A stretch of DNA of 64,000 nucleotides from an uncultured Actinomycetes bacterium (GTDB lineage Bacteria > Actinomycetota > Thermoleophilia > Gaiellales > JAICJC01). The stretch spans positions 733,697 through 797,696 of the forward strand of contig CAVPTL010000008.1 of NCBI GenBank assembly GCA_963708725.1, in the 5' to 3' direction. Made by a program: the position numbers and the translations under genes. Below, in pieces: positions 23,090 through 52,129 of this stretch; position 1 is the stretch's first letter; each line of letters begins with the position of its first letter. Below the pieces are notes generated by a model that had not been told where the DNA came from, made no database searches, and saw nothing but the letters and a program-made list of their open reading frames with translations.

Positions 23090-23151
23090 GTCGCCACTCC
23101 TTCGTACGGACGAAATGAGTACGCGCCGATCGGCGCGAGAGAAGAGTGGAT

Positions 23152-23180
23152 ACAGTATTCAGTTCGGTCGGCGCCGTCAA
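23152..23180 (-). promoter_or_regulatory. Candidate promoter TTGACG-N17-TACTGT with the TACTGTATCCA motif (permease gene)
   Basis: On the minus strand, TTGACG lies at 23180..23175 and TACTGT at 23157..23152, followed by ATCCA. The perfect 14-nt palindrome gcgccgatcggcgc lies in the 5' UTR. Confidence 0.5.
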
Positions 23181-23193
23181 GAGCGGCGGCGGG

Positions 23194-23628
23194 CTAGCAG
23201 CTCACGGGGCCGATAACTTGCGGCGCCGACATCGCGCTGTACGAGGACTCCGACGAGAATGTGGTGGCTACCTCGATATACAGGTGGCCGCTGGATATAG
23301 GGGAGTGCCAGTACCCGTTGGACGCCGGCAGCGCCACGACGCCCATGCTCGTGTACGGCCCTCCCGACGACGTTGCGTAGAACGCTGCGACGGAGTCGCC
23401 CCCCGAACCACCGGGGACAGTGAAGCTCACTTGAACAGTTGTTACACCGGCACCGAAGCAGCCGGCATAGCCGGCAGTGACGCTGGTTGGCGTCAAAAGC
23501 GGCAGGCCGCTGGTGAACGCGGTCGTGTCCGATGTGGTCGACGTCCAGGTGGCAAGCGCCGCACCCGTCGGCGCAGCGAGGATGGTCGCGACGGCGAGTA
23601 TCACCCAGAGCGTCCGCGACCGGGTCAC
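23194..23628 (-). CDS. Small secreted protein with a SipW-cognate-like signal peptide (accessory subunit candidate)
   Basis: GTG 23628 overlaps the signal-peptidase stop (GTGA). The N-terminus VTRSRTLWVILAVATILAAPTGAALATWTSTTS resembles the G-x-x-A-x-aromatic-T/S junction of the upstream paralogs. Confidence 0.55.
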   Translation of the reverse strand: MTRSRTLWVILAVATILAAPTGAALATWTSTTSDTTAFTSGLPLLTPTSVTAGYAGCFGAGVTTVQVSFTVPGGSGGDSVAAFYATSSGGPYTSMGVVALPASNGYWHSPISSGHLYIEVATTFSSESSYSAMSAPQVIGPVSC

Positions 23629-24143
23629 GTTTCCCACCAGACGTCGCTCTCTCGCCGGCGCCATTCACGCAGCGCGAGTTTGCCGACCGCAACCGCTGCG
23701 ACCAGCAGCCCCGCACCGGCCAGCGTCACCGGCGAGCGCACCGCCACGATCACGTATCCCGCCCAGGGTAGGTCCTGCTGGGCCACCCACACAGTGCGGT
23801 CGGCGAGCCGTGCCCGCCAGGGGTCGACCACTGGGTTGGCATCCCCGCGGGTGGTGATCACCGGTCGCGCTCCGGCCATCTGGATTTTCACCACGCGGTG
23901 CATGACGAGATGGTGGTCGAGCACGGGGATGTGGTAGACGACGACCTGGCCAACTCGCAGTGCGGAGATCGGCTCGGGTGTCACGAACGCGGCCGAGCCG
24001 GTGGGATAGGTCGGCGTCATGCTGCCCGAGAGCACCGGCAGCATCCGCACCCGCCCGCTGAGTTGGGCGGCGACGAGCGCCAGGGCAGCCACGGCGATGA
24101 TGCATGCCAACCCGGTCGTGAGCCGGCCCGCAAGCGTCCTCAT
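23625..24143 (-). CDS. Signal peptidase I, SipW/archaeal-eukaryal (Ser-His) type
   Basis: N-terminal TM, then LSGSMTPTYPTGS (catalytic Ser box), MHRVV (His box), TRGDANPVVD, and a C-terminal TM. Confidence 0.8.
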   Translation of the reverse strand: MRTLAGRLTTGLACIIAVAALALVAAQLSGRVRMLPVLSGSMTPTYPTGSAAFVTPEPISALRVGQVVVYHIPVLDHHLVMHRVVKIQMAGARPVITTRGDANPVVDPWRARLADRTVWVAQQDLPWAGYVIVAVRSPVTLAGAGLLVAAVAVGKLALREWRRRESDVWWET

Positions 24144-24165
24144 GATGTCTGACTCTTTAGCCTGA

Positions 24166-24762
24166 TCAGTGGCCGGTGAAGACGAGCCGGATGCCCGAGG
24201 TCTTGGCCTCGAACGAGTTGTCGGCGGTCGATGGCAGCGTGAAGGTGACCACCAGGTGGTCGGTATTGCCGCCGTCGACCGCGGTCAGGTTGTCGAGCGA
24301 GAGGTTCGACCCGATCACCGGTCGCGCGGCCAGGACGCTGTCGGTGGTTCCCGGGCAGGTGTAGGTGAAGTTCGGCGACGTCCCGCTCTCTGTCCATGAC
24401 GTCGAGCAGCGGTCGATCGTGAACTGCAGGCCGTCGGTGGTATCGGTGTCGAGAATCGAGCTGGGGCTCGCGGTCGTGGTCAGCGTGATCGAGGAGAGGT
24501 CGACCGAGCCGGAGTTGACCAGGTCGACGCTGCGCTGCACCGAGTCGCCCGGCGTCTCGTCGGTCGCGTCGACGTCGAGCCGGTTGCTCTGGCCACCGGT
24601 GGCGCCGACGTCCAGCGTGAGCGTCCCGGTCGAGAACGTGTGGGTCACCGCATTGGTGGAGCTGGTGAACCCGGCGTACACGCCGATACCGGCGATCAGG
24701 AGCGCGATCACGATCACCACCGGCAGGATGAAGAATCGTTTACGTCTGTCGTGAAAGCGCAT
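24166..24762 (-). CDS. TasA/camelysin-like secreted protein, paralog 1
   Basis: The signal anchor ends in GVYAGFTSST. Conserved blocks: GDS.QRSVDLVNSGSVDLSSITLTTTASPSSILDTDTTDGLQFTIDRCS...TYTC. Confidence 0.72.
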   Translation of the reverse strand: MRFHDRRKRFFILPVVIVIALLIAGIGVYAGFTSSTNAVTHTFSTGTLTLDVGATGGQSNRLDVDATDETPGDSVQRSVDLVNSGSVDLSSITLTTTASPSSILDTDTTDGLQFTIDRCSTSWTESGTSPNFTYTCPGTTDSVLAARPVIGSNLSLDNLTAVDGGNTDHLVVTFTLPSTADNSFEAKTSGIRLVFTGH

Positions 24763-24840
24763 CAGCGGTGCTCCGTTGCCGGTTGAAGGTCGTTCCAGGT
24801 CGCCCCAGTAGTCGGACGGGCGTGGCCCCGGTTGAGCGCG

Positions 24841-25554
24841 TCACTTGTCGGTGGCCGCGCGCTGGGTGCCGGTGAAGGCGTAGGTGATCGTCGAGCTGAG
24901 ACCCTGGGTGGAGTTCGATGTGCCCGACGGCAGGGTCAGCGTGACCCGCAGGTGGTTGCTCGCGCCGGCTGTGAGCGTGAGGTTCGAAAGCGTCAGGTTC
25001 GACCCGATCACCGCGCGCGATGCCAGCACACTGGTGGTGGTGCCGCTGCAGGTGTAGGTGAAGGCCGGCGAGGTACCCGCCTCGGTCCAAGCCACCGAGC
25101 ACTTGTCGATCACCATCTGGAGGCCGTTGGTGGTGTCGGTGTCGAGCAGCGAGCTGGGGCTGGCGGTGGTGGTCAGCGTGATCGAGGCGAGGTCGATCGC
25201 GCCGGAGTTGTTGAGATCGACACTGCGCTGCATGGTGTCGCCTGCGACGATGCCGCTGGCGTTGATGTTCAGGCGGTTGGTCGACGCCCCGGTGGCTCCC
25301 AGGGCCACGGTGATCGTGCCCGAGCCGATCGTGTTCGACTGCGAGGCGGTGCTGGTGTAGGTCGCGTACACCCCGGCTCCACCGAGCGAGGCCGCGAGTG
25401 CGATGCCCCCTAGCGCGACTGGCCTGATGGCGACCCCTGCTCCCTGCCTACCGGAGAAGAACAGTGGATAGGTCGCTGTGAACCGGAACAGTCGCAGCGA
25501 GACGATCATCGCGGCAAACACGATCACGGTCAGATCGGTGGCGAGGGGGTGCAT
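24841..25554 (-). CDS. TasA/camelysin-like secreted protein, paralog 2 (start uncertain)
   Basis: Same conserved blocks as paralog 1, and very close to paralog 3. The ORF has a longer hydrophobic N-terminus, so the true start may be internal. Confidence 0.7.
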   Translation of the reverse strand: MHPLATDLTVIVFAAMIVSLRLFRFTATYPLFFSGRQGAGVAIRPVALGGIALAASLGGAGVYATYTSTASQSNTIGSGTITVALGATGASTNRLNINASGIVAGDTMQRSVDLNNSGAIDLASITLTTTASPSSLLDTDTTNGLQMVIDKCSVAWTEAGTSPAFTYTCSGTTTSVLASRAVIGSNLTLSNLTLTAGASNHLRVTLTLPSGTSNSTQGLSSTITYAFTGTQRAATDK

Positions 25555-25583
25555 CAGCTCGATCCCGCGGCCCGGCCTCGGGC

Positions 25584-26204
25584 CTACTCGTTGGTGGCGG
25601 CGCGCTGGCTGCCGATGAAGGCGCAGGAGATCGTCGAGGACAGCCCCTGGAGCGTGTTCGGGGCGGTCGCCGGCAGCGCCAGCGTCACCCGCAGGTGGTT
25701 GCTGGCGCCGGCAGTCACGGTCATGTTGGAGAGCGCGATGGCCGAGCCGATCACGGCCTGGGACGCCAGCACGCTCGAGCTGGAGCCGCTGCAGGTGTAG
25801 GTGTACGCCGGCGATGTGCCGGCTTCAGTCCACGGCACCGAGCATTTGTCGATCGTGATCTGAAGGCCGTTGGTGGCGTCGGTGTCGAGCAACGAGCTGG
25901 GGCTGGCCGTCGTGGTCAGGGTGATCGAGCCGAGGTCGGTCGAGCCGGTGTTGTTGACATCGACGCTGCGCTGCATCGTGTCGCCGGCGACGATCCCGCT
26001 GGCGTTCACGTTCAGGCGGTTGGTCGAGGCGCCAGTCGCTCCCAGGGCGATCGTGACAGTGCCCGACGACACCGTGATCGATTGCGTAGCGCTGGCGGTG
26101 AAGGTCGCATACACGCCGACTCCGCCGGCGAGGGCGACCAGCAGCACCACGCCGACGACGGCGGCAAGAAAGCGGGGACGGCGGATTCGGGCTGAAGTCC
26201 TCAT
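25584..26204 (-). CDS. TasA/camelysin-like secreted protein, paralog 3
   Basis: MRTSARIRRPRFLAAVVGVVLLVALAGGVGVYATFTASAT..., with the same conserved blocks and Cys pair. Confidence 0.72.
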   Translation of the reverse strand: MRTSARIRRPRFLAAVVGVVLLVALAGGVGVYATFTASATQSITVSSGTVTIALGATGASTNRLNVNASGIVAGDTMQRSVDVNNTGSTDLGSITLTTTASPSSLLDTDATNGLQITIDKCSVPWTEAGTSPAYTYTCSGSSSSVLASQAVIGSAIALSNMTVTAGASNHLRVTLALPATAPNTLQGLSSTISCAFIGSQRAATNE

Positions 26205-26242
26205 CGCCCCGGTAGTCGGACACCCTCAGCCCGTCTTGAGAG

Positions 26243-26839
26243 CTAGTGGTTTCCCGCGGCCCGCTGCGTGGCGTTGAACGTCCAGGTGCAGGTGGACGTG
26301 AGGTAGAGCATCGAGGTCGAGGGGCCGGGGAGGTTGACAGAAAGCCTCAGATGGTTACTCGCACCCCCGGTGAGCGTGAGGTTCGAGAGCGCGATGCCGG
26401 TGCCGGCAATCGCGCGGGAGGCGAGCACCGAGGTTGTCGTTCCACCGCAGGTGTAGGTGTAGTTGGGGCTGGTGCCCGACTCGGTCCATGCCACCGAGCA
26501 CTTGTCGATCACGATGTGCAGGCCGTTGGTGGTGTCGGTGTTGAGGGCGGAGCTTGGGCTGAAGCTGGTCGTGAGCGTCACCGATGCCAGGTCGGCGGTT
26601 CCCGACACGTTCAGATCGAAGCTGCGATAGATCGTGTTGCCGATGACCATGCTCGGCGCCGCCACGGAGAGCCGGTTGGTCGAGGCGCCGCCGGCACCAA
26701 GCGCAACCGTGACGGTGGCCGACGACACCGACTGGGCCTGCGATGTCACCCCCGTGTACCCGGCGTACACACCGAATCCGGCGAGCGCCGCGGCGATCGC
26801 GATCACGGCGATGCCGGTTGCTCCCAGATGGCGCATCAC
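26243..26839 (-). CDS. TasA/camelysin-like secreted protein, paralog 4
   Basis: The most divergent paralog (GVYAGYTGVTS...LTTSFSPSSALNTDTTNGLHIVIDKCS...TYTC). Confidence 0.7.
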   Translation of the reverse strand: MMRHLGATGIAVIAIAAALAGFGVYAGYTGVTSQAQSVSSATVTVALGAGGASTNRLSVAAPSMVIGNTIYRSFDLNVSGTADLASVTLTTSFSPSSALNTDTTNGLHIVIDKCSVAWTESGTSPNYTYTCGGTTTSVLASRAIAGTGIALSNLTLTGGASNHLRLSVNLPGPSTSMLYLTSTCTWTFNATQRAAGNH

Positions 26840-26892
26840 GCCCGGGAAATCGGCGTGAATCCTTTCGAGTTAAGACCGCGCGGAGGGCGACC

Positions 26893-27726
26893 TCAGCGTT
26901 CGAACTGCACCGGATTTCGCAGCGTGCCCACGCCGGGAACAGTGATCTCGACCACTTCGCCGTCGCGCAGATACCGCGGCGGCGTCCGCGAGTCGCCCAC
27001 CCCGGCCGGTGTGCCGGTGGCAATCACATCGCCGGGCTCGAGGGTCATCCCCTGCGAGACGTACTGGATCAACTCGACGATCGAGAAGATCAGATGCTTG
27101 GTGTTGGAGCTCTGCATCGTCTCGCCGTCGACCGTGGTGGAGATGGCGATGTCGTCGAACTCGAACCCGTCGGCCGAGGCGACGCAGGGGCCAAACGGCG
27201 CGAAGGTGTCGAAGCTCTTGCCCAGCGTGAACTGCCGCAGCGGAGTTTCGAGCTGCGCACGACGGCCCGAGACGTCGTGCATGATCGAGATCCCGCCGAC
27301 CGCGTCGCGAGCGACCAGCTCGTCGGCCCGGTAGGTGCGACGACCGATCACGACCGCGACCTCGCCCTCCCAGTCGGGCCGGGTCTCCTCACGCGGGATC
27401 ACGATCGCCGCGTCGGGGCCGATCAGGGCCGAGGGGAACTTGGCGAAGACGACCGGTACGTCGGGCATCTCGAGCTTGGACTCCTCCGCGTGGTCGCGGT
27501 AGTTGAGCCCAATGGCGACGATCTTCTCGGGTACCGTCGGATGCAGCAGCGTGACGTCGGCGACGGCGAATGTCTCGCCGGCAGCCGATTCGAGGGCGCC
27601 CCAGTTCTCGATCGAGGGGATGAAGCCGTGCACGTCGCTGCCGCCGGCATCGACGATTGTGTCGCCCTCCAAGCGCCCGATCCGGGGAGCTCCCTCGGCG
27701 CCGACGCGATACCTCACTGCTTTCAT
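26893..27726 (-). CDS. Fumarylacetoacetate hydrolase (FAH) family protein
   Basis: 277 aa. The C-terminal FAH block reads GDVIATGTPAGVG. The ATG overlaps the upstream stop (ATGA). Confidence 0.82.
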   Translation of the reverse strand: MKAVRYRVGAEGAPRIGRLEGDTIVDAGGSDVHGFIPSIENWGALESAAGETFAVADVTLLHPTVPEKIVAIGLNYRDHAEESKLEMPDVPVVFAKFPSALIGPDAAIVIPREETRPDWEGEVAVVIGRRTYRADELVARDAVGGISIMHDVSGRRAQLETPLRQFTLGKSFDTFAPFGPCVASADGFEFDDIAISTTVDGETMQSSNTKHLIFSIVELIQYVSQGMTLEPGDVIATGTPAGVGDSRTPPRYLRDGEVVEITVPGVGTLRNPVQFER

Positions 27727-28088
27727 CGACCTTCCTCCGTCCTCAACACTTTGAGCGCGTTGATCGCGCGTGGAACGCCAGCATACGGTGTTGTCTGAAG
27801 AATCGTCTCTTCTATGTCACTCACCGGTACATCGATTGCCCGCAGCGCCTGGATGTGAGCGGCCACCTGGGGTTCGCAGCCGCCGAGCGTCACCAGACAC
27901 GCCAGGATGATCAACTCCCGGTCGCGCGCTCCCAGCCCGGGTCGGGTGTGTACCTCGCCGAATGTCCAATCCACCAGCCAATCGGCCATGGGGCTACCCA
28001 TCCGCTCGAGGAACGCCTCACCACCGGGGTGATCCCCCAGCTCGGCGAGCCTCGCGAGGCCGCGTTCGTGCCGTCCTTCGGGGTCCAT
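27723..28088 (-). CDS. Carboxymuconolactone decarboxylase (AhpD-like) family protein
   Basis: Start placed at MDPEGRHERGLARL (ATG 28088) after a GGAAGGAG RBS. Motif RELIILACLVTLGG. The ORF-track N-terminal extension overlaps the divergent gene and is implausible. Confidence 0.72.
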   Translation of the reverse strand: MDPEGRHERGLARLAELGDHPGGEAFLERMGSPMADWLVDWTFGEVHTRPGLGARDRELIILACLVTLGGCEPQVAAHIQALRAIDVPVSDIEETILQTTPYAGVPRAINALKVLRTEEGR

Positions 28089-28100
28089 CTGACTCCTTCC

Positions 28101-28129
28101 TTGACCGCTCGGCGCGGATCGCATACTGT
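28101..28129 (+). promoter_or_regulatory. Candidate promoter TTGACC-N17-TACTGT with the TACTGTATCCA motif, 8 nt before GTG 28138 (leaderless)
   Basis: TTGACC lies at 28101-28106 and TACTGT at 28124-28129, followed by ATCCA. Confidence 0.55.
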
Positions 28130-28137
28130 ATCCAATC

Positions 28138-28986
28138 GTGGCAAAGGGACGTGTTCGCGTGCAGATCGACGGTGGCCCCCAGTGGGGCCAAATCGACGCT
28201 GACCGAATCACGCTCGACTCCGGGGAGCATCTCGATGCGGCCACCGCGCAGTTCCTTGCACCGGTCGAGCCAACGAAGATCATCGCCACCCATCTCACCT
28301 ACCGTAGCCGGGTGGAGGAGTACGCCGCCCGGGTGCCGCCCTACCCCTCGTACTTCATGAAGCCGCCGACGACCCTCAACGGCCACGGCGGGATTCTGCG
28401 GAGGCCGTCCGGCTGCCGGTTTTTGAACTACGAGGGCGAGGTCGCGGTGGTGATCGGCAAACCGATGCACGGCGTGCCCGAGGATCAGGTGCTGGACTAC
28501 GTCGCGGGGTATGCGCCGTGTAACGATGTCGGCCTGCACGACTTTCGCCATGCCGACCGCGGCTCGATGCTGCGGGTCAAGGGCCAGGACGGTTTCTGCC
28601 CGATCGGACCCGCGCTCGTGCCAGCCGCCGACTTCGACCCGACCGATTTCACGCTTCGCACCTATCTCAACGGCGAGGTGGTGCAGGAAGGCGGCGCCGG
28701 CGATCTGATCTGGCCGATCTCCTACCTGCTCGCCGACCTGTGCCGGTTGATCACGCTCGAGCCGGGCGACATCGTGCTCTCGGGCACGCCGGCCAACTCG
28801 CGGCCGATGGAGCCGGGCGACGTCGTCGAGGTCGAGGTCTCGGGCCTCGGCCGGCTGTCCAACACGGTGGAAGAGTGGGACGTCGACCTCTCGGGGCCGG
28901 GCGATCAGCCCGAGGTCTCGGCCAACACGCTGCACGTCGCGCTGGCGATGCCCGAGGACGAAGCCGAGCGCACGGTGGGCGGATGA
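28138..28986 (+). CDS. FAH-family isomerase/decarboxylase (HpaG-like)
   Basis: 282 aa with NYEGEVAVVIGK and GDIVLSGTPANS blocks. It is the first gene of a translationally coupled plus-strand operon. Confidence 0.8.
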   Translation: MAKGRVRVQIDGGPQWGQIDADRITLDSGEHLDAATAQFLAPVEPTKIIATHLTYRSRVEEYAARVPPYPSYFMKPPTTLNGHGGILRRPSGCRFLNYEGEVAVVIGKPMHGVPEDQVLDYVAGYAPCNDVGLHDFRHADRGSMLRVKGQDGFCPIGPALVPAADFDPTDFTLRTYLNGEVVQEGGAGDLIWPISYLLADLCRLITLEPGDIVLSGTPANSRPMEPGDVVEVEVSGLGRLSNTVEEWDVDLSGPGDQPEVSANTLHVALAMPEDEAERTVGG

Positions 28987-29903
28987 TCGCGATTCGCCGC
29001 ATCGATCACGTGTGCCTGCGAGTGGCCGACGTGGACGAGGCGGCCGCGCGCTGGGGCGTGCAGTTTGGGCTGACGCTCACCGAACGAACCGCCGATCGCG
29101 CCTACCTTCGCTGTGGCTATGAGCCGTACAGCCTCGAACTGGTGGCCGGCGAGCCGGGCCACGATCACACCGGCTTTGAGCTGCGCCGAGGTGTCTCGCT
29201 CGACGATGCCGCCGCCCACCTGACGGGCACAGGGGTCGCCCACGAGCGCGACGGCGACCGGATCTGGCTCGGCGACGCCGAGGGAAACCGGATCGAGCTG
29301 ATGCCCTTTCGCCACGACGGCGACCGCCGCCCCGACATCGCCCGCTCGACCAGCGTCCTGCCGGGCTTTCGGCCGCGCAAACTCGGCCACGTCAACTTCC
29401 TGACCGGCGACCTGGCCGCCCAGACCGCCTTCTACACCGACGTGCTCGGCATGGGAGTGTCAGACCGGCTCGGCACCGGCGGTGCGTGGTTTCATGTGAA
29501 CTCCGAGCATCATGCGGTGGCGTTCGTCAACCAGGGCCACCGGCATCTGCACCACCTGGCGTTCGACATGGTCGATTGGAGCGGCCTGCGGGTCGCCTTC
29601 GATCACCTCGGCCAGCACGGACGCTGGCTCGGCTGGGGGCCGGTACGTCACGGCATCGCCCAGAACATCTGCGGGTACGTGCGGATCACCGAGGAGCCCA
29701 TGTTCGTCGAGCTCTACTGCGACATGGAACAGCTCGAACCCGACCACGAGCCACGCGACTGGCCCGACGACCGGCATTCGTCCAACACCTGGGGGCCGCT
29801 GCCGCCGCGTTCGTATTTCCGATTCGACCCGGAGGCCGTTCGCTACGAGCGCGACAGCCTCGAGATGCTGGGCGAGAAGCTGCCCCCGCTGGAGGTGACC
29901 TAG
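28983..29903 (+). CDS. Type I extradiol ring-cleavage dioxygenase (VOC superfamily; homoprotocatechuate/catechol 2,3-dioxygenase-like)
   Basis: ATGA overlap at 28983. It has two VOC modules (IDHVCLRV..., LGHVNFLT..., HHLAF). Confidence 0.78.
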   Translation: MIAIRRIDHVCLRVADVDEAAARWGVQFGLTLTERTADRAYLRCGYEPYSLELVAGEPGHDHTGFELRRGVSLDDAAAHLTGTGVAHERDGDRIWLGDAEGNRIELMPFRHDGDRRPDIARSTSVLPGFRPRKLGHVNFLTGDLAAQTAFYTDVLGMGVSDRLGTGGAWFHVNSEHHAVAFVNQGHRHLHHLAFDMVDWSGLRVAFDHLGQHGRWLGWGPVRHGIAQNICGYVRITEEPMFVELYCDMEQLEPDHEPRDWPDDRHSSNTWGPLPPRSYFRFDPEAVRYERDSLEMLGEKLPPLEVT

Positions 29904-31367
29904 ATGGCGACGACCAAGCCCGCGGTGGCTGCGCGCACCGGCCAGGAGTTCCTGGACGGACTGCGCGGCGATGCGCGCGAGATCTGGCTGAACGGCGAGA
30001 AGATCACCCACCCGCTCGATCATCCCGAGCTGGAGGCAGCGGCACGATCACTCGCGCGCGTGTACGACCTCCAGCACGAGCACGCCGACGAGATGCTCGC
30101 CCCCTCACCGGATGACGGACGGCTCGTGAACGTGTCGCATCTGATTCCTCGCTCGCGCGAGGATCTCGTGCGCCGCCGCCGTGCGATCGAGCTGACTGCC
30201 GCCGCCACCGCCGGCATGATGGGCCGCACCCCCGACTACCTCAACGTGACGTTTGCGTGCTTTGCCGGTCGCTCCGACGTGTGGGCGCGCCGCGACAACG
30301 AGCAGGGCGCCGCCAACATCGTGGCCTACCAGCGTGAGATGCGCGATCGCGACCTCTCGACCACCCACTCGATCATGAACCCGCAGGTCGACCGCACCAA
30401 GCCCGAGGCCGAACAGGCGGCAGGTGAGGTGGCGCTGCACAAGATCGGCGAGACCGAGAACCACATCACCGTCCGCGGCGCGCGCATGCTCGCGACCCTT
30501 GCGCCGTACGCCGACGAGCTCACGATCTATCCGGGCTCCGACATCCGTCCACAGGACGGCAGCTACGCGCTCTCGTTTGCGATCCCGATGGCCACGCCCG
30601 GCCTCAAGTTCATCTGCCGCGACTCGTATTCCAAGCAGCGTGACCCGTTCGACTACCCGCTCTCGTCGCGGTTTGACGAGATGGATGCGGTCGCCATCTT
30701 CGACGACGTCGAGGTGCCGAAGAGCCGCGTCTTTCTGGACGGCGACACGGTCGGGTATTCCGAGGTGATCTCCGACACCGGCTGGCGCGGGCACATCATG
30801 CAGCAGGCCTTCACCCGCGCCTACGTCAAGCTGTCATTCGCCTTCGGGCTGGGCCATCTGCTCGCCAATACCACCGGCGTCGTGCGCTTCGATCACATTC
30901 AGGAGAAGCTCGGCCGGATCTCGAACATGGTCGAGCTGACCCGCTCGGGGCTCGTGTCGGCCGAAGCCGGGTCGTTCCTGGACGAGGGCGGGGTGTGGTA
31001 TCCCGATGACCGCCCGTTCCTGGCGCTGCGCGGAGAGATGCCGCGGTGGCTGCCGAGCATCAACGAGCTGCTCCAGCTGATCGGCGGCGGCGGGTTCATG
31101 GCCACACCCTCGCGAGCCGACCTCGACGGCCCGCTGCGCGACGATATCGATCGCTACTACCAGTCGGCCGGTGCCGATGCCGAGCGCCGGATTCAGCTGT
31201 TCCGGCTCGCGTGGGATTACATCGGGTCAGATCTCGGCAGTCGCGGAGAGCTGTACGAGCGGTTCTACCTGTCAGACTCCTGGAGGATGACCGCGCTTGC
31301 CTACAAGCTCGCCGACAAGGGCTTCCCCGAGTCGCTGGTCGAGCAGTTCCTGGGAGGCACCGCATGA
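29904..31367 (+). CDS. hpaB: 4-hydroxyphenylacetate 3-monooxygenase, oxygenase component (HpaB family)
   Basis: 487 aa with typical HpaB-family length and blocks (TPDYLNV, HSIMNPQVDR, GGGGFMATPS). Confidence 0.8.
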   Translation: MATTKPAVAARTGQEFLDGLRGDAREIWLNGEKITHPLDHPELEAAARSLARVYDLQHEHADEMLAPSPDDGRLVNVSHLIPRSREDLVRRRRAIELTAAATAGMMGRTPDYLNVTFACFAGRSDVWARRDNEQGAANIVAYQREMRDRDLSTTHSIMNPQVDRTKPEAEQAAGEVALHKIGETENHITVRGARMLATLAPYADELTIYPGSDIRPQDGSYALSFAIPMATPGLKFICRDSYSKQRDPFDYPLSSRFDEMDAVAIFDDVEVPKSRVFLDGDTVGYSEVISDTGWRGHIMQQAFTRAYVKLSFAFGLGHLLANTTGVVRFDHIQEKLGRISNMVELTRSGLVSAEAGSFLDEGGVWYPDDRPFLALRGEMPRWLPSINELLQLIGGGGFMATPSRADLDGPLRDDIDRYYQSAGADAERRIQLFRLAWDYIGSDLGSRGELYERFYLSDSWRMTALAYKLADKGFPESLVEQFLGGTA

Positions 31368-32143
31368 TCGGCGGCTACTCGCTGCCGCTGTCGCCCGCCG
31401 GCAAGGCCTCGCTGGTACCCGCGCCGCCATGGCACTACGTCGGCGACTTTCTGGTGATCGAGTACTGGGCGGATCCCGCCGCGGTGGCCGCGGCGCTGCC
31501 GCCGGGGCTCGTGCCCTATCCCGACGATCCCGGCCGGGCGGCCGCGCTGTTCGTCGATTGGCAGTCGTGCTCGGACTCCGGCGAGGAGCTGCTCGATCCG
31601 ATCCGCGGGCAGTACAAGGAGTTCTTCATCGTGGTGAGCGCGATGCTCGGCGACGAGCTGGTCACGACCTGCCCCTACATCTGGGTCGATCGCGACTTTG
31701 CCCTCGTCCGCGGCTGGATTCAAGGCTTTCCCAAGAAGCTCGCGTCGATTCAGATGACGCGGAGCTTCGGGCTCGACTGCAAGGCGGAGGGCCGCACCTT
31801 TGCCGGTACCGTGCAGGCGGGCGACCGCCGGATTGCAGAGGGCACGGTAACGCCCGAGCGTGTCGCCGAATCTGGCCCCACGCACAACGATCCACCGCTG
31901 ATCAACCATCGCCATTTTCCCCGGCTGGCCGCCGGCCGCCATGCCGATCCGGCGGTCGACGAGCTGGTGCGGGCGCGTAGCAGCGACCGCTCGATCTCAA
32001 CCATCCACGAAGGGCGGGCGACGCTCGACCTGCTGCCCTCGCCGGGTGACGAGCACACCGCCCTTGCGCCCGTGCGGATGGGCAAGGGCTTCCGGTTCCA
32101 GTTCGCCTATACCGTCGACGACCTCGAGACGGTGGCCGGATGA
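31364..32143 (+). CDS. Acetoacetate decarboxylase (ADC)-family protein
   Basis: ATGA overlap at 31364. The N-terminus MIGGYSLPLSPAGKASLVPAPPWHYVGDFLVIEYWADP is typical of ADC-like enzymes. Confidence 0.7.
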   Translation: MIGGYSLPLSPAGKASLVPAPPWHYVGDFLVIEYWADPAAVAAALPPGLVPYPDDPGRAAALFVDWQSCSDSGEELLDPIRGQYKEFFIVVSAMLGDELVTTCPYIWVDRDFALVRGWIQGFPKKLASIQMTRSFGLDCKAEGRTFAGTVQAGDRRIAEGTVTPERVAESGPTHNDPPLINHRHFPRLAAGRHADPAVDELVRARSSDRSISTIHEGRATLDLLPSPGDEHTALAPVRMGKGFRFQFAYTVDDLETVAG

Positions 32144-33591
32144 GCACGCTCGTCGCCGGCGTGGATGTCTCCCCTGAGCATCTGATCGGTGGGCGGCGGG
32201 TGGGCTCGGCCGAGACCTTCACCGACATCTCGCCGATCGACCAGTCGGTGATCGCCGAGGTGGCCCGCGGTGGCCCGACCGAGACCGAGATGGCGGTTGC
32301 CGCCGCCCGCGATGCGTTCCCGGGTTGGGCTGCGCTCGGGCCGGCTGGCCGGGCGCCGTATCTGCGCCGGCTGGCCGATCTGATCGACGCCTCGATCGAC
32401 CGGATCGCGATGGTGGAGTGTCTCGACATGGCGATGTTGCAGCGCTCGCTCCAGGCGCGCGTGATCGGCCGCGGGGCTCGCAACTTCCGAAGCTATGCCG
32501 AGCTGGCCGAAGGCTATTCCGAGCGTGTGTGGTCGTCGGGTTCGACCGACAACCGAGTGATCCGGATGCCGTCGGGGCCGGCGGCGGTGATCACCCCCTG
32601 GAACGCCCCGTTCATGCTCTCGACGTGGAAGACCGCGCCCGCGCTGGCGGCCGGATCGACGGTGATCCTGAAGCCGCCCGAGTGGGCGCCGCTGTCGTGC
32701 TCGATCCTGGCGGGGCTGACCGTCGAAGCCGGGTTCCCGCCGGGCGTCTTCAATATCGTGCAGGGAATCGGCGAGGAAGCGGGCGCCGCGCTCGTCGCCA
32801 ACCCCGGGTTGCGCCGGATCAGCTTCACCGGCTCGCCCGAGACGGGCCGCTCGATCGGCGCGTCGGCCGCAGCCAACATCGTTCCGTTCACCGCCGAGCT
32901 CGGCGGCAAGGGGCCGCTGATCGTGTTCGAGGACGCCGACATCGACGCCGCCGCGGCCAAGGCCGCCGGGCAGTACGACGATGCCGGTCAGGTGTGTTTG
33001 GCCGGCACCCGGCTGCTGGTGCAGGAGTCGGTCGCCGGCGCCTTCCTCGAACGGTTCCACGCCGGGGTTGACGCCCAGGTGCTCGGCGATCCCCGTGAGG
33101 ATTCGACCACGATCTCGCCGTTGATCCATCCCGACCACCTGGCTCGGGTCGAGGGTTTCGTCGAGCGCGCTCGGGCAAACGGCGACCGCATCGTCCGCGG
33201 CGGCAAGCGTTCCGATCTCGGCGGCCTGTGGTATGAGCCGACGCTGATCGAGCCGCGCTCCAACGACTCCGAGATCATCCAGCGTGAGGTGTTCGGGCCG
33301 GTGCTGACCTATCAGACGTTCCGCGACGAGGATGAGGCGGTGGCACTCGCCAACTCGACCGCCTACGGCCTTTCGGCGATCATCTACACCGGCACCGAGG
33401 AGCGAGCGGAGCGAGTCGGCCGGGCGGTGCGGGCAGGCACCGTGTGGGTCAATACCTTTCTCGTTCGTGATCTGACCGCGCCGTTTGGCGGCACCGGCAT
33501 CTCGGGCATCGGCCGCGAGGGCGGCGATCACGCGCTCGACTTCTACTCCGATCTCAAGACGCTCCAGATCTCGCAGGGAACGACGACGTGA
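32140..33591 (+). CDS. NAD-dependent aldehyde dehydrogenase (5-carboxymethyl-2-hydroxymuconate semialdehyde dehydrogenase-like)
   Basis: ATGA overlap at 32140. Motifs ELGGKGP and the catalytic Cys context GQVCLAGTR. Confidence 0.85.
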   Translation: MSTLVAGVDVSPEHLIGGRRVGSAETFTDISPIDQSVIAEVARGGPTETEMAVAAARDAFPGWAALGPAGRAPYLRRLADLIDASIDRIAMVECLDMAMLQRSLQARVIGRGARNFRSYAELAEGYSERVWSSGSTDNRVIRMPSGPAAVITPWNAPFMLSTWKTAPALAAGSTVILKPPEWAPLSCSILAGLTVEAGFPPGVFNIVQGIGEEAGAALVANPGLRRISFTGSPETGRSIGASAAANIVPFTAELGGKGPLIVFEDADIDAAAAKAAGQYDDAGQVCLAGTRLLVQESVAGAFLERFHAGVDAQVLGDPREDSTTISPLIHPDHLARVEGFVERARANGDRIVRGGKRSDLGGLWYEPTLIEPRSNDSEIIQREVFGPVLTYQTFRDEDEAVALANSTAYGLSAIIYTGTEERAERVGRAVRAGTVWVNTFLVRDLTAPFGGTGISGIGREGGDHALDFYSDLKTLQISQGTTT

Positions 33592-34835
33592 CCATCTCGC
33601 CGGCGGATGTCCACCTCGATAACGACGCGTTTTCGCAGCGCGTCCCTCACGAGCTGTTCGCGCGCATGCGCGACGAGGCGCCGGTGCTCTGGTACGACTG
33701 GCCCTACGGCCGCGGCTTCTGGTCGGTGACGCGATACGACGACATCGTGACGGTGCTGAAGGATTGGCGCACGTACTCGTCCGAGGTGGGTGGCACCGCG
33801 CTCGAGGATCTCGATCCCGACCAGGTCGAGGCCCGCAAGTCGATGCTCGACGCCGACCCGCCCGAACATTCCAGCCTGCGCGCGATCGTCAACAAGGGGT
33901 TCACGCCACGCGCCGTCGCCGCCTACGAAGATCTGCTGCGGAACCTGACCCGCACGATCCTCGACGACGCCCTGCCCAGGGGCGAGTTCGACTTCATCGA
34001 GGAGGTCGCCAAGCAGCTGCCGATCCAGGTGCTGTGCCGGATCCTCGGCGTGCCGCTGGTCGACGACGAGAAGATGATCGACCTCGGTGACCGCATGATC
34101 GGAAATACCGATCCCGACTCGGGCGGGCTGCACCCGGGTAGTCCCGAGAGCGATCAGTACCGGCTGCTGCCGTTTCGCAGCCCGTACGCGAAGGAGCTGT
34201 TTGACTATGGCCACGACCTGGCGGCCAAGCGGCGGGAGGATCCCCGCGATGACCTGGTGTCCAAGCTCGTGGCCTGGGAGGACGACGACGGCCGCCGCCT
34301 GACCGAGCAGGAGTTCGACACGATGTTCCTGCTGCTGGTGGTTGCGGGCAACGAGACCACGCGCCAGTCGATCGCTCACGGGCTCGCGGCGCTGGTGGAG
34401 CACCCCGACGCGATGCAGCGGATGCGCTCCGACCCGGAGGTGATGAAGACCGCGGTCGAAGAGATCATGCGCTGGTCGTCGCCCGTGATCCATTTCCGTC
34501 GCACCGCGACCACCGACACCGAGCTGAACGGCGTCTCGATCAAGGCGGGCGACAAGGTGGTCGTGTGGTTGATCTCGGGGAACTTCGACGAGCGCCAGTT
34601 CGAGCAGCCATACACGTTTGACATCACTCGCAAGCCCAACCGCCACGTCACCTTCGGGCGGGGCGGGCCGCACTTCTGCCTGGGCGCGCATCTCGCGGTG
34701 CTCGAGACGCGGGTGATGTTCGAAGAGCTTTTGCCGCGCGTCGGTTCGGTGGAGCTGACCGCGCCGCCCAGGCGCCTGGAATCGAACTTCACCAACGCGT
34801 TCAAGTCGATGCCGGTGCGCGTCACACCCGCGTAA
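33588..34835 (+). CDS. Cytochrome P450
   Basis: GTGA overlap at 33588. Motifs AGNETT (I-helix), EIMRW (ExxR) and FGRGGPHFCLGAHLA (heme Cys loop). Confidence 0.9.
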   Translation: MTISPADVHLDNDAFSQRVPHELFARMRDEAPVLWYDWPYGRGFWSVTRYDDIVTVLKDWRTYSSEVGGTALEDLDPDQVEARKSMLDADPPEHSSLRAIVNKGFTPRAVAAYEDLLRNLTRTILDDALPRGEFDFIEEVAKQLPIQVLCRILGVPLVDDEKMIDLGDRMIGNTDPDSGGLHPGSPESDQYRLLPFRSPYAKELFDYGHDLAAKRREDPRDDLVSKLVAWEDDDGRRLTEQEFDTMFLLLVVAGNETTRQSIAHGLAALVEHPDAMQRMRSDPEVMKTAVEEIMRWSSPVIHFRRTATTDTELNGVSIKAGDKVVVWLISGNFDERQFEQPYTFDITRKPNRHVTFGRGGPHFCLGAHLAVLETRVMFEELLPRVGSVELTAPPRRLESNFTNAFKSMPVRVTPA

Positions 34836-47632: not shown

Positions 47633-49459
47633 GTGTCAACTCCCTGCGCGGGGCTCATGTGGCGTACGGCACACGCCGATGGAGTCCTCATGGCGTTGGA
47701 TCCGTCAGGGCTGCCTCCGGCTGGGACCGGAGGGTCGAACAACACTGTCGACGTGCTGCGGCGCGTCGCGGCGACCGCGGCCGTCCACATCTACGAGATG
47801 GAGTACCTCGAGGATGGGCGGTACGTGTGCAACGAGTTCATCGGGGAGGGCCTCGAGAGCCTGCTCGGCCCGCTCCCCGAAGGCCATGACGAGGAGGAGG
47901 CCTGGGAGAACGCCGTGCATCCCGACGATCACGCCGCCTATCTCGCCTTCAACGAGGCCCTCCGCCAGGGCCGTCCCATGGAGCTCGAATACCGGCTGGT
48001 CGGCTTCGACCGCCGCACGCGCTGGGTGTGGGATCGAGCCCGCCCGCGATTTACCCAGGGCCGTCTCCTGGTCGAGGGCATCGTCACCGACGTGACCGAC
48101 CGGCACGAGGCTGGTGAAGCGCTGGCCGACGCTCAGCGAAAGCTCGCCCACCTCGCCTACCACGACCCGCTCACCGATCTGCCGAACCGGCTCAAATTCT
48201 CCGAGCAGCTCGAGCGCACCCTCGCAGAGGCGGAGCGCAACGACGCCGCTGCCGCCGTGCTGTTCGTCGATGTGGATGACTTCAAACTGGTCAACGACAG
48301 CCTCGGCCATGCCGTCGGCGACGAGCTTCTCCGTACGCTGGCAGGACGGCTGCAACAGGCCGTCAGGCAGGGCGACATGGTCGCCCGGCTCGGCGGCGAC
48401 GAGTTCCTGGTGCTGCTCTCGATGCCCGGCGAGAGCGACACCAGCATCGTGCGTTCGGCCGCCGAGGAGACCGCCGCACGGATCCGTGCCATCGTGTCGC
48501 GACCCGCCGAGGCCGGTGGCGTGGAGGTGTTCGTGTCGGCCAGTGTCGGCATTGCCCTGTTCCCGCAGGACGCCACGGTGGGCGAGGAGTTGCTGAAACA
48601 CGCCGACATCGAGATGTACCGAGCCAAGCAGGTTGGCCGTGAGAGCCAGCGAGCCGCCGTTCGCGACTCGGACGAGGCCACCGATCGGCTGGCGGTCGCA
48701 GGCCGCCTGCGTGGGGCGGTCGAACGCGGCGAGATGGTGCTCAACTATCAGCCGATCGTTGCCCTCGATTCCGGAGCGATCATGGGCGTCGAGGCGCTGA
48801 TCCGCTGGAACGATCCCGTGCGCGGCCTGGTGCAGCCGGCCGACTTCATCCCCGTTGCCGAGCGCACCGGCGCGATCGGTGGCATCTCCGACTGGGTGGT
48901 CGAAACCGCCCTGGTACAGGAACGGGCATGGCGAGCCGCTGGAATGGATCTGTTCGTCTCGGTCAACCTGCCGCCGATCCTGTGGCGGCCAAAGGCGATG
49001 CGGCGTGTGATCGACACGATCGAAAGCTACGGACTCGACCCCAGCCGGCTGATGATCGAGATCACCGAGACCGCCGCCACCGCCGATTCGGAAGGTGTCG
49101 AGCCGATGTTGGCCGATCTCCAGCGGCGAGGCCTTGGTATCGCGATCGACGATTTTGGCACCGGCCACTCGTCGCTCGGGCGGCTCAACCACATTTCAGT
49201 GACGACGATCAAGATCGATCGCTCGTTCGTGACCGGGCTGCCGGCGGATCCAAGCTCGGTGGCGGTCGTCGACAGCGTCATCAAACTCTCTCGGAACCTC
49301 GGTCTCACACCGCTGGCAGAGGGAGTCGAAACCGAGGGCCAGCGCCGATTCCTCTCCGCGCATGGGTGTGCACTGGGCCAGGGCTTTCTGTTCAGCCCTG
49401 CGGTGCCCGCCGATCAGATCGAACTGCTGGTACGGCGTCAGCGCCCGATGGCCGCCTGA
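47633..49459 (+). CDS. PAS-GGDEF-EAL signalling protein
   Basis: A PAS block (ELEYRLVGFDRRTRWVWDR), GGDEF (RLGGDEFLVLL), and EAL (EALIRW, DDFGTGHSSL). The start is uncertain (47633 or 47690). Confidence 0.88.
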   Translation: MSTPCAGLMWRTAHADGVLMALDPSGLPPAGTGGSNNTVDVLRRVAATAAVHIYEMEYLEDGRYVCNEFIGEGLESLLGPLPEGHDEEEAWENAVHPDDHAAYLAFNEALRQGRPMELEYRLVGFDRRTRWVWDRARPRFTQGRLLVEGIVTDVTDRHEAGEALADAQRKLAHLAYHDPLTDLPNRLKFSEQLERTLAEAERNDAAAAVLFVDVDDFKLVNDSLGHAVGDELLRTLAGRLQQAVRQGDMVARLGGDEFLVLLSMPGESDTSIVRSAAEETAARIRAIVSRPAEAGGVEVFVSASVGIALFPQDATVGEELLKHADIEMYRAKQVGRESQRAAVRDSDEATDRLAVAGRLRGAVERGEMVLNYQPIVALDSGAIMGVEALIRWNDPVRGLVQPADFIPVAERTGAIGGISDWVVETALVQERAWRAAGMDLFVSVNLPPILWRPKAMRRVIDTIESYGLDPSRLMIEITETAATADSEGVEPMLADLQRRGLGIAIDDFGTGHSSLGRLNHISVTTIKIDRSFVTGLPADPSSVAVVDSVIKLSRNLGLTPLAEGVETEGQRRFLSAHGCALGQGFLFSPAVPADQIELLVRRQRPMAA

Positions 49460-52085: not shown

Positions 52086-52129
52086 TCCCAAACCGGACGT
52101 TCAGTTAAAGAACTGGCGCCGCGCCGCCG

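Follow-up and report, generated by a model that had tools for sequence, protein, structure and literature searches.

A conserved six-gene cassette of Actinomycetota encoding a putative TasA-superfamily fibre system with sigma-28/WhiG-type promoter-like elements

What four tandem genes for related secreted proteins, followed by genes for a signal peptidase and a small protein, might build, and under which control, is the question raised by a stretch of DNA from an uncultured soil actinomycete (Thermoleophilia; Gaiellales; contig CAVPTL010000008.1). The whole stretch of 64,000 nucleotides (nt) that was analysed is referred to here as the window. Listing of its open reading frames (ORFs) placed six of them head to tail on the minus strand at 23194-26839, where an earlier reading made from the letters alone (the sequence-only reading) had proposed a six-gene cluster. 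The four paralogs, p1 to p4, were found to belong to the TasA/camelysin family, the structural model of one of them matched the TasA fibre best, and the peptidase carries the catalytic residues of its class; both the cassette and a promoter-like motif are conserved in related loci, with the motif being enriched upstream of subunit genes. On balance, we lean towards the view that the cassette, taken as a whole, encodes a TasA-superfamily extracellular fibre system. Its parts are as follows.

p1, 26243..26839, minus strand: diverged TasA-family subunit, 198 amino acids (aa), or 197 aa from the ATG at 26836
p2, 25584..26204, minus strand: canonical-type TasA-family subunit, 206 aa
p3, 24841..25554, minus strand: canonical-type TasA-family subunit, 237 aa
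p4, 24166..24762, minus strand: diverged TasA-family subunit, 198 aa
Signal peptidase gene, 23625..24143, minus strand: endoplasmic reticulum (ER)/archaeal-type signal peptidase I (SPase I), SipW-like, 172 aa
X, 23194..23637 (or 23628), minus strand: small secreted Fn3 protein, 147 or 144 aa
P1 promoter-like element, 26847..26874, minus strand: CTTA-N16-GCCGATTT, from comparison with the WhiG/FliA consensus
P2 promoter-like element, 26213..26240, minus strand: CTCA-N16-TCCGACTA, contains a 17-mer at 26205-26221
P4 promoter-like element, 24809..24836, minus strand: CTCA-N16-TCCGACTA, contains the 17-mer at 24801-24817

The spacers between successive genes from p1 to the peptidase gene measure 38, 29, 78 and 22 nt, the last being the p4-to-peptidase gap already reported, and a start of X at the GTG at 23628 (144 aa) likewise reproduces the GTGA overlap with the peptidase gene that had been described. 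With the GTG at 23637, which is the choice of public gene callers, the overlap extends to 13 nt and the product to 147 aa; the longest ORF for X would encode 156 aa. The G+C content at third codon positions is 0.80-0.91 in the called frames of the cassette, as it is in the neighbouring genes.

Family assignment was based on PF12389 (Peptidase_M73, the TasA/camelysin family; gathering score 22.5 bits), which p1, p2, p3 and p4 matched with 26.7, 35.0, 45.3 and 38.4 bits, respectively, the match being full-length in p3 only. All four scores lie above the gathering score, and we regard it as nearly certain that the paralogs are members of this family, a call made at the level of the family. For p2, 74 homologs were used in AlphaFold2 modelling, and the core of the resulting model has a predicted local distance difference test (pLDDT) score of ~80. 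Its top match among Protein Data Bank (PDB) structures in a Foldseek search was the TasA fibre 8aur_A (E 7.5e-4, probability 1.0, template modelling score 0.43-0.48), followed by the TasA monomers 5of1/5of2 (probability 0.99), with the further donor-strand filaments 7ueg, 7pnb and 9hdi among the lower matches; the family call of the sequence-only reading is thereby borne out. In the alignment of the family profile with TasA, the subunit "SSGT" is paired with the TasA "ASGT", as is the C-terminal strand. In p2, the counterpart of the TasA donor strand (residues 28-63) is modelled as disordered in the monomer, a result compatible with donor-strand exchange but no proof of it.

Inspection of the sequences revealed the junction G-V-Y-A|x-(F/Y)-T in p1, p2, p3 and p4, as had been noted before, and the cysteine pair pointed out in the paralogs is invariant across the 74 homologs; in p1 it corresponds to Cys114/Cys131. 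The sequence blocks quoted earlier as shared were present in the paralogs, with p1 departing from several of them. At 74% protein identity, p2 and p3 are the most similar pair, which is well short of the near identity that had been claimed. Divergence of p4 was seen as described (53-59% identity to the remaining three), but it is not peculiar to p4, since p1 has diverged as well (53-66%), so that both end paralogs stand apart. The motif LDTD(A/T)T(N/D)GL is near-invariant in the family (Asp107, Asp109; window 24444-24476, 25119-25151 and 25887-25919, minus strand) and is placed by the model in a short helical or loop segment; a metal (calcium) site like those reported for AbpX and cannulae is conceivable here.

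Homologs of the paralogs are abundant in soil metagenomes, with 3,885 matches in one search, and at least 298 loci were confirmed in a metagenome scan. In JGI annotation, many of the homologs go by the name "spore coat-associated protein N" or are described as a peptide "with SipW-like signal peptide", and some carry the TIGR04088 label.

The peptidase scored 74.8 bits against TIGR02228 (archaeal/ER-type SPase I, S26B; cut-off 51.85 bits). The SGSM, HRVV and GDAN motifs were found, and alignment to human SEC11A placed the catalytic Ser41, His82 and Asp101/Asp107 on SGSM, HR and GDNN..DD, in agreement with the Ser/His-type enzyme suggested before. Hydropathy analysis revealed hydrophobic (membrane) segments at both the N- and the C-terminal end. 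Against the Bacillus SipW equivalog model NF046067, it reached 42.8 bits with a cut-off of 190; judged by these comparisons, the cassette peptidase is of SipW-like type and not a SipW ortholog. A contig scan with the peptidase as query retrieved distant relatives only (34-45% identity, in metagenome-assembled genomes of Actinomycetota), which had no close subunit homologs nearby.

The product of the last gene had been introduced as a small cognate-signal protein. Its signal junction, GAALA|TWT, and its signal peptide are indeed subunit-like, but X is more than that, as evident from its AlphaFold2 model, which contains a confident Fn3 domain (residues 48-147, including Cys60 and the C-terminal Cys147) that matched many Fn3 structures with probability 1.0. 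The pLDDT is <50 up to residue 30 and ~79 by residues 41-50. The X family profile matched the Fn3-like protein 3mpc (E 6e-7); no Pfam or NCBIfam match was found for X, and its profile, run against all PDB chains with E up to 10, retrieved Fn3 proteins only, none of them named TapA. Profile alignment of the X family to the subunit family with hhalign gave one local match, X 1-44 against subunit 4-48 (P 4.9e-6), spanning the signal peptide, the cleavage junction and ~15 mature residues. Similarly, a hidden Markov model (HMM) of the subunit N-terminus matched X alone among the other ORFs of the window (E 0.002). An origin of X as a fifth TasA paralog was ruled out, given the complete Fn3 domain and the confinement of subunit likeness to residues 1-44.

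After the predicted cut (ALA|TWT...AFTSG), an aromatic residue is at position 2 and S-G at positions 14-15, a register that X shares with the paralogs and with TasA (AFNDIKSKDATFASGT); the mature N-termini of related X proteins read AFNSSSAAVSQSIATGTL and similar. According to PMC10269814, an aromatic residue at P2' makes TasA a poor substrate of LepB and a client of SipW. In filaments of the TasA superfamily from archaea and bacteria, an aromatic residue at mature position 2 is also known as the donor-strand "aromatic clamp". Since no X proteins were retrieved with an HMM confined to the mature N-terminus of the subunits, the donor-strand mimicry of X is proposed conditionally, on the basis of the register and a few residues.

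The layout of X, with a subunit-like signal peptide and a subunit-like unstructured N-terminal strand ahead of a complete immunoglobulin (Ig)-like domain, is that of TapA. TapA has a SipW-processed signal peptide, an unstructured N-terminus near-identical to that of TasA and a complete Ig fold unable to accept a strand (PMC10151520, PMC9674648), and because of this closed fold it is restricted to the start of the filament. X is treated here as a functional analogue of TapA because the layout is shared, a sequence relationship being absent. By this analogy, X is a candidate fibre initiator, cap or adhesin.

A word-index search for homologs of X returned X only, and an exhaustive search returned seven relatives. 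Nearly all related loci have an X-type gene that follows the peptidase gene and is coupled to it, with junction and register shared; two tandem Fn3 X copies follow the peptidase gene in L017 (1306-2203) and L018 (691-1588).

The same six-gene order was recovered in two further lineages, L012 and L013, with products of 200, 206, 231, 198, 172 and 137-144 aa; the genomic surroundings differ there, chemoreceptor genes immediately preceding the cassette. The gene order partly recurs in L017 and L018. In a comparison set of 80 further metagenome loci, the usual core consists of one subunit gene, the peptidase gene and an overlapping gene for a secreted protein of one of three size classes (~141-162 aa, being the Fn3 proteins of the X family, ~291 aa and ~375-400 aa), with one or two extra subunit genes sometimes located 3' of the core. 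The four-subunit form is rarer than the single-subunit form. Hypervariability of the cassette was ruled out by its 98.7-100% identity across four related assemblies.

Comparison of the four-subunit lineages revealed marks that belong to the position of a paralog in the cassette. The p4 protein is 69-71% identical to p4 of L012/L013, compared with 52-59% to the other paralogs, and the C-terminal QRAATN tail is missing from the p4 orthologs. In p3, an extra N-terminal hydrophobic segment (residues 1-36; window 25447-25554, minus strand) precedes a normal signal peptide; it is kept in the orthologs of L012 (7655-7760) and L013 (7656-7761) and might cross the membrane a second time or act as a regulatory leader. 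Exactly two cysteines are present in 93 of 103 homologs. A third one in p2, C194 (window 25623-25625, minus strand), lies in the last strand (STISCAF) and is conserved in p2 of L012/L013. The odd Cys184 of p1 is encoded at window 26288-26290 (minus strand). The unpaired cysteine of p2 or p1 may be a candidate for an intermolecular disulfide. To the "primary" subunits of single-subunit loci, p2 and p3 are nearest (median identity 63-67%, compared with 55% for p1 and p4), p3 being the closest of the four.

With a distinct signature conserved at every position in three or more lineages, specialised roles of the paralog positions are indicated. These signatures argue for roles kept by selection and would fit a putative heteropolymer with major and minor subunits. 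In such a fibre, p2 and p3 would probably be the canonical, major subunits, with p1 and p4 probably being conserved, diverged minor or adaptor subunits.

The favoured model runs as follows. The five substrates, p1 to p4 and X, would be exported via Sec with unusual signal peptides, and the dedicated peptidase would cut after (V/A)-x-A, leaving mature N-termini with an aromatic residue at position 2. By donor-strand exchange, in which each freed N-terminal strand would complete the beta-sandwich of a neighbouring subunit next in line, an extracellular fibre would arise with p2 and p3 as its bulk and p1 and p4 as adaptors. X could only donate, because its closed Fn3 fold has no TasA-type acceptor domain; it would sit at one fibre end as initiator, cap or adhesin and display its Fn3 domain.

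Among the alternatives, the one that survives best holds that the subunits form separate homopolymers for different conditions or surfaces and that X is merely another substrate of the peptidase outside the fibre, such as a wall-associated adhesin. It draws on the three separate promoter-like elements, on the single subunit gene that suffices in most related loci and on the failure of the mature-N-terminus HMMs to link X with the subunits. We consider it unlikely, though not negligible: the three elements are of the same type, and co-expression is therefore expected; the positions are kept across lineages with their own signatures (odd cysteine of p2, tail loss of p4, extension of p3); and the X-type gene is nearly always peptidase-coupled with junction and register in common.

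Transcriptional control of the cassette was approached via the gene spacers. Exactly two copies of a 17-mer, at the places given above, had been reported in the sequence-only reading and taken as a duplication scar. The copy number was reproduced (0.08 expected by chance in the window), but the scar gave way to a different assignment, as a conserved bipartite element of sigma-28/WhiG promoter-like type has the 17-mer as its -10 half. In spacer alignments between lineages with only 55-75% protein identity, CTCAA(C/G) and (T/G)CCGA(C/A)TA were found to be fixed and their spacing constant, with the sequence between them varying. In the 64 kb, the bipartite pattern occurs three times (0.04 expected by chance), on the coding strand before p1, p2 and p4, and in other loci it occurs at the corresponding places only. 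The P2 element is conserved in the orthologous p1-p2 spacer of L012 and L013, and the P4 element in L012, L013 and L017.

For the actinobacterial sigma-28 family, the published consensus is CTCA-N16-17-GCCGAACT (WhiG1) and T(A/C)AA-N16-GCCGATAA (WhiG2; PMC12871210), the central CGA being the most conserved part of both (PMC12871210, PMC8325347). The strict rule applied here (PMC12871210) comprises an intergenic CTCA-N16-17-GCCGA or T(A/C)AA-N16-GCCGA with CGA intact, ≤1 mismatch at -10 positions 1-2 and a distance of ≤200 bp from the start codon. P2 and P4 comply with it. The conserved element matches the sigma-28/WhiG promoter consensus and, from this likeness in sequence, is read as a putative promoter. 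An earlier interpretation as an extracytoplasmic function (ECF) sigma factor site (AAC...CGAC) was dropped, as L017 has GAATAC there and the sigma-28 consensus fits better.

The 3' end of P1 lies 7 nt before the GTG at 26839 and that of P2 lies 8 nt before the ATG at 26204; with start codons 7-8 nt after the -10 region, leaderless mRNAs are predicted for p1 and p2. P4 is located 46 nt before the ATG at 24762, and the leader in between holds a conserved CAACCGGCAACGGAGC block including a GGAG ribosome-binding site. Upstream of subunit genes in the 80 metagenome loci, some of which are near-duplicates of one another, a match within 160 nt was found in 41 of 88 cases, 29 of them perfect, at tightly clustered positions. 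Control genes in the same loci had a match in 6 of 87 cases, corresponding to a ~12-fold enrichment (Fisher p = 1.6e-9).

Against a promoter, it can be held that the element is a duplication scar, a site of RNA processing or stability or the operator of some other regulator, and that readthrough from the FAH-family gene upstream yields the cassette as one transcript. None of the spacers is long (22-78 nt), scans for sigma-70 promoters and intrinsic terminators found none, and the pattern was partly derived from the same sites. P2 and P4 each have one mismatch, the -10 region beginning with T in place of G, and P1, with a perfect -10 region, has one -35 mismatch and fails the strict rule. In GC-rich DNA such as this, the loose consensus often occurs by chance; the published WhiG query in its loose form had 21 matches in the window, mostly within genes, compared with ~8 in shuffled sequence, and the 64 kb contain no whiG/fliA gene. 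Still, we judge this alternative improbable: half-sites and 16-nt spacing are kept while the spacer sequence changes, single-copy homologs from independent loci are preceded by the consensus at a fixed distance, the enrichment over control genes is about 12-fold, and the match is to a consensus that was defined experimentally in Actinomycetota.

With the element taken as a promoter, three sigma-28/WhiG-type promoters, before p1, before p2 (and p3) and before p4, the peptidase gene and X, would drive the cassette. Promoters of this type would tie the fibre to the regulon that in other Actinomycetota comprises flagella, chemotaxis, type IV pili and cyclic di-GMP (c-di-GMP) enzymes. In L012 (4873-6965) and L013 (4878-6965), a gene for a protoglobin chemoreceptor of the methyl-accepting chemotaxis protein (MCP) type ends 2-6 nt before the cassette. 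It has a sigma-28-type motif of its own (L012 4789-4813, perfect; L013 4801-4825, one -10 mismatch), and from this motif and the 2-6 nt gap p1 appears to be co-transcribed with the chemotaxis gene in these two lineages. Both PAS-GGDEF-EAL genes of the window, which are genes of c-di-GMP turnover, also have perfect motifs at their 5' ends: CTCA-N17-GCCGATGG at window 47654-47679 (plus strand), 7 nt before an in-frame ATG at 47690, and TAAA-N16-GCCGATGC at window 52106-52130 (plus strand), within the 254-nt spacer before the ORF at 52130. In the literature, no predicted WhiG targets are more widespread than genes for diguanylate cyclases and phosphodiesterases (DGC/PDE). The main text of the WhiG regulon preprint (PMC12871210) makes no mention of TasA-like genes.

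Several results weigh against the fibre model. The best paralog score with NF046066, the equivalog model of B. subtilis TasA, was 22.1 bits with a cut-off of 450. The SipW-cognate signal models suggested in the sequence-only reading did not apply, p3 reaching 15.8 bits with TIGR04088 (cut-off 19) and p4 12.1 bits with TIGR04089 (cut-off 60), and none of the remaining paralogs matching either model. Because these scores are far below the cut-offs, the paralogs are regarded as distant family members and not as TasA orthologs. In keeping with this, the subunit family profile, run against the PDB, matched TasA alone and weakly (E 0.5), and phmmer of p3 against the PDB gave no match. No wall anchor, LPXTG motif, SLH domain or sortase is present at the cassette. 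Polymerisation is predicted from the monomer model and from family likeness. The weakest alternative, that the paralogs are camelysin-like enzymes such as metalloproteases, or soluble exoproteins, which are secreted and processed by the peptidase and do not polymerise, takes its appeal from the naming of the Pfam family after camelysin, a reported metalloendopeptidase, and is very improbable, given that no histidine is among the invariant or near-invariant columns of the 74 homologs and no HExxH-type motif is present, that the best fold matches are fibre-forming TasA and other donor-strand filaments, that the N-terminal strand is unstructured in the p2 monomer model and that the accessory X has a TapA-like layout.

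If the fibre model and the promoter assignment are taken together, soil Actinomycetota might possess a third class of sigma-28/WhiG-controlled filament beside flagella and type IV pili, namely a position-specific TasA-type heteropolymer, begun or tipped by a donor-strand-mimicking Fn3 protein and possibly c-di-GMP-gated via WhiG. This combined proposal is tentative, and we would at present sooner doubt it than rely on it.

One further feature of the cassette was recorded:

Hairpin, 25562..25583, minus strand: GC-rich, directly 3' of the p2 stop codon; possible attenuator, weak evidence

A hairpin of different sequence is also found at the matching place in L012 and L013. The folding energy of the post-p2 hairpin is no better than that of shuffled sequence (z -0.3 to -1.3), and for this reason its significance as an attenuator is doubtful.

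Upstream, the cassette adjoins an unrelated aromatic-acid catabolic cluster (window 26893-34835) encoding two FAH-family hydrolases, a CMD-family protein, an extradiol dioxygenase/glyoxalase and HpaB as well as an ADC-family decarboxylase, an aldehyde dehydrogenase and a P450; only 53 nt separate the upstream FAH gene from p1. The L001 assembly is 99-100% identical over the cassette and the upstream genes and ~95% identical immediately downstream (permease and acyl-CoA dehydrogenase genes), and this drop (window ~23090-23190) suggests a recombination boundary at the 3' end of the cassette. Rfam and tRNA scans of the window were empty.

In the literature, PF12389 in Actinobacteriota is already listed in surveys (PMC9245690), and Actinomycetota sequences have been placed in the TasA cluster (AbpX preprint), with loci containing minor and tip subunits described for AbpX. 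A literature search found no experimental or detailed study of an actinobacterial TasA-type system, in agreement with the statement of the sequence-only reading that such clusters are uncharacterised in this phylum. We conclude that the cluster itself is a sound, unsurprising annotation and that follow-up is best directed at the regulatory link and the minimal initiator. Both in Bacillus biofilms and in archaeal bundling pili, TasA-type fibres are a main scaffold; the cassette, with six genes, three putative promoters and a candidate minimal initiator, offers a compact, testable model. The regulatory hypothesis would link matrix fibres to the WhiG/FliA and c-di-GMP circuitry of actinobacterial development, motility and pili. 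If true, it would extend the known WhiG regulon and provide a case of donor-strand fibres ordered without a chaperone-usher machine, with a regulatory logic opposite to that of Bacillus, where motility and matrix production exclude each other.

Among known systems, the tapA-sipW-tasA operon of B. subtilis (8AUR, 5OF1) had been named as the parallel, and with the family calls holding, this operon logic holds as well. In common are PF12389 beta-sandwich subunits with a co-encoded ER/archaeal-type signal peptidase, the aromatic P2' junction and an accessory protein with a subunit-like strand before a complete Ig-like domain. Unlike the Bacillus operon, the cassette has the order subunits-peptidase-accessory, four specialised subunit paralogs with an invariant cysteine pair and, as accessory, a 147-aa Fn3 protein unrelated to TapA; its subunits and peptidase fail the Bacillus equivalog models (22 vs 450 and 43 vs 190 bits). 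Regulation is predicted to be of sigma-28 type, whereas the Bacillus operon is SinR-repressed (PMC9674648).

The putative fibre is further likened to the jelly-roll donor-strand filaments of the TasA superfamily known from archaea and bacteria (AbpA/AbpB bundling pili, AbpX loci, haloarchaeal Tafi). Besides major and minor subunits, the loci of these filaments encode a tip or anchor protein and, frequently, an SPase I, and the aromatic clamp is at mature position 2. These families form separate sequence clusters, however, and no WhiG-type promoters have been reported for them; the AbpX-linked peptidase has ten transmembrane helices, compared with two hydrophobic segments in the cassette peptidase.

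With respect to regulation, the closest likeness discussed here is to the WhiG/FliA type IV pilus cluster of Rubrobacter radiotolerans (PMC8325347), in which filament genes are arranged in three transcription units, each with a sigma-28-type promoter, and DGC/PDE genes have the same promoter type, just as the PAS-GGDEF-EAL genes of the window carry motifs. The filaments differ, being type IV pili there and secreted donor-strand subunits here, and the promoters were mapped in R. radiotolerans but are only predicted in the cassette. Gram-negative chaperone-usher pili (Fim/Pap) are unrelated in sequence and require a periplasmic chaperone and an outer-membrane usher, both of which are missing from the cassette; as ordered heteropolymers of paralogous Ig-like subunits with N-terminal donor strands and a tip adhesin, they nonetheless provide the working analogy for p1 to p4 and X.

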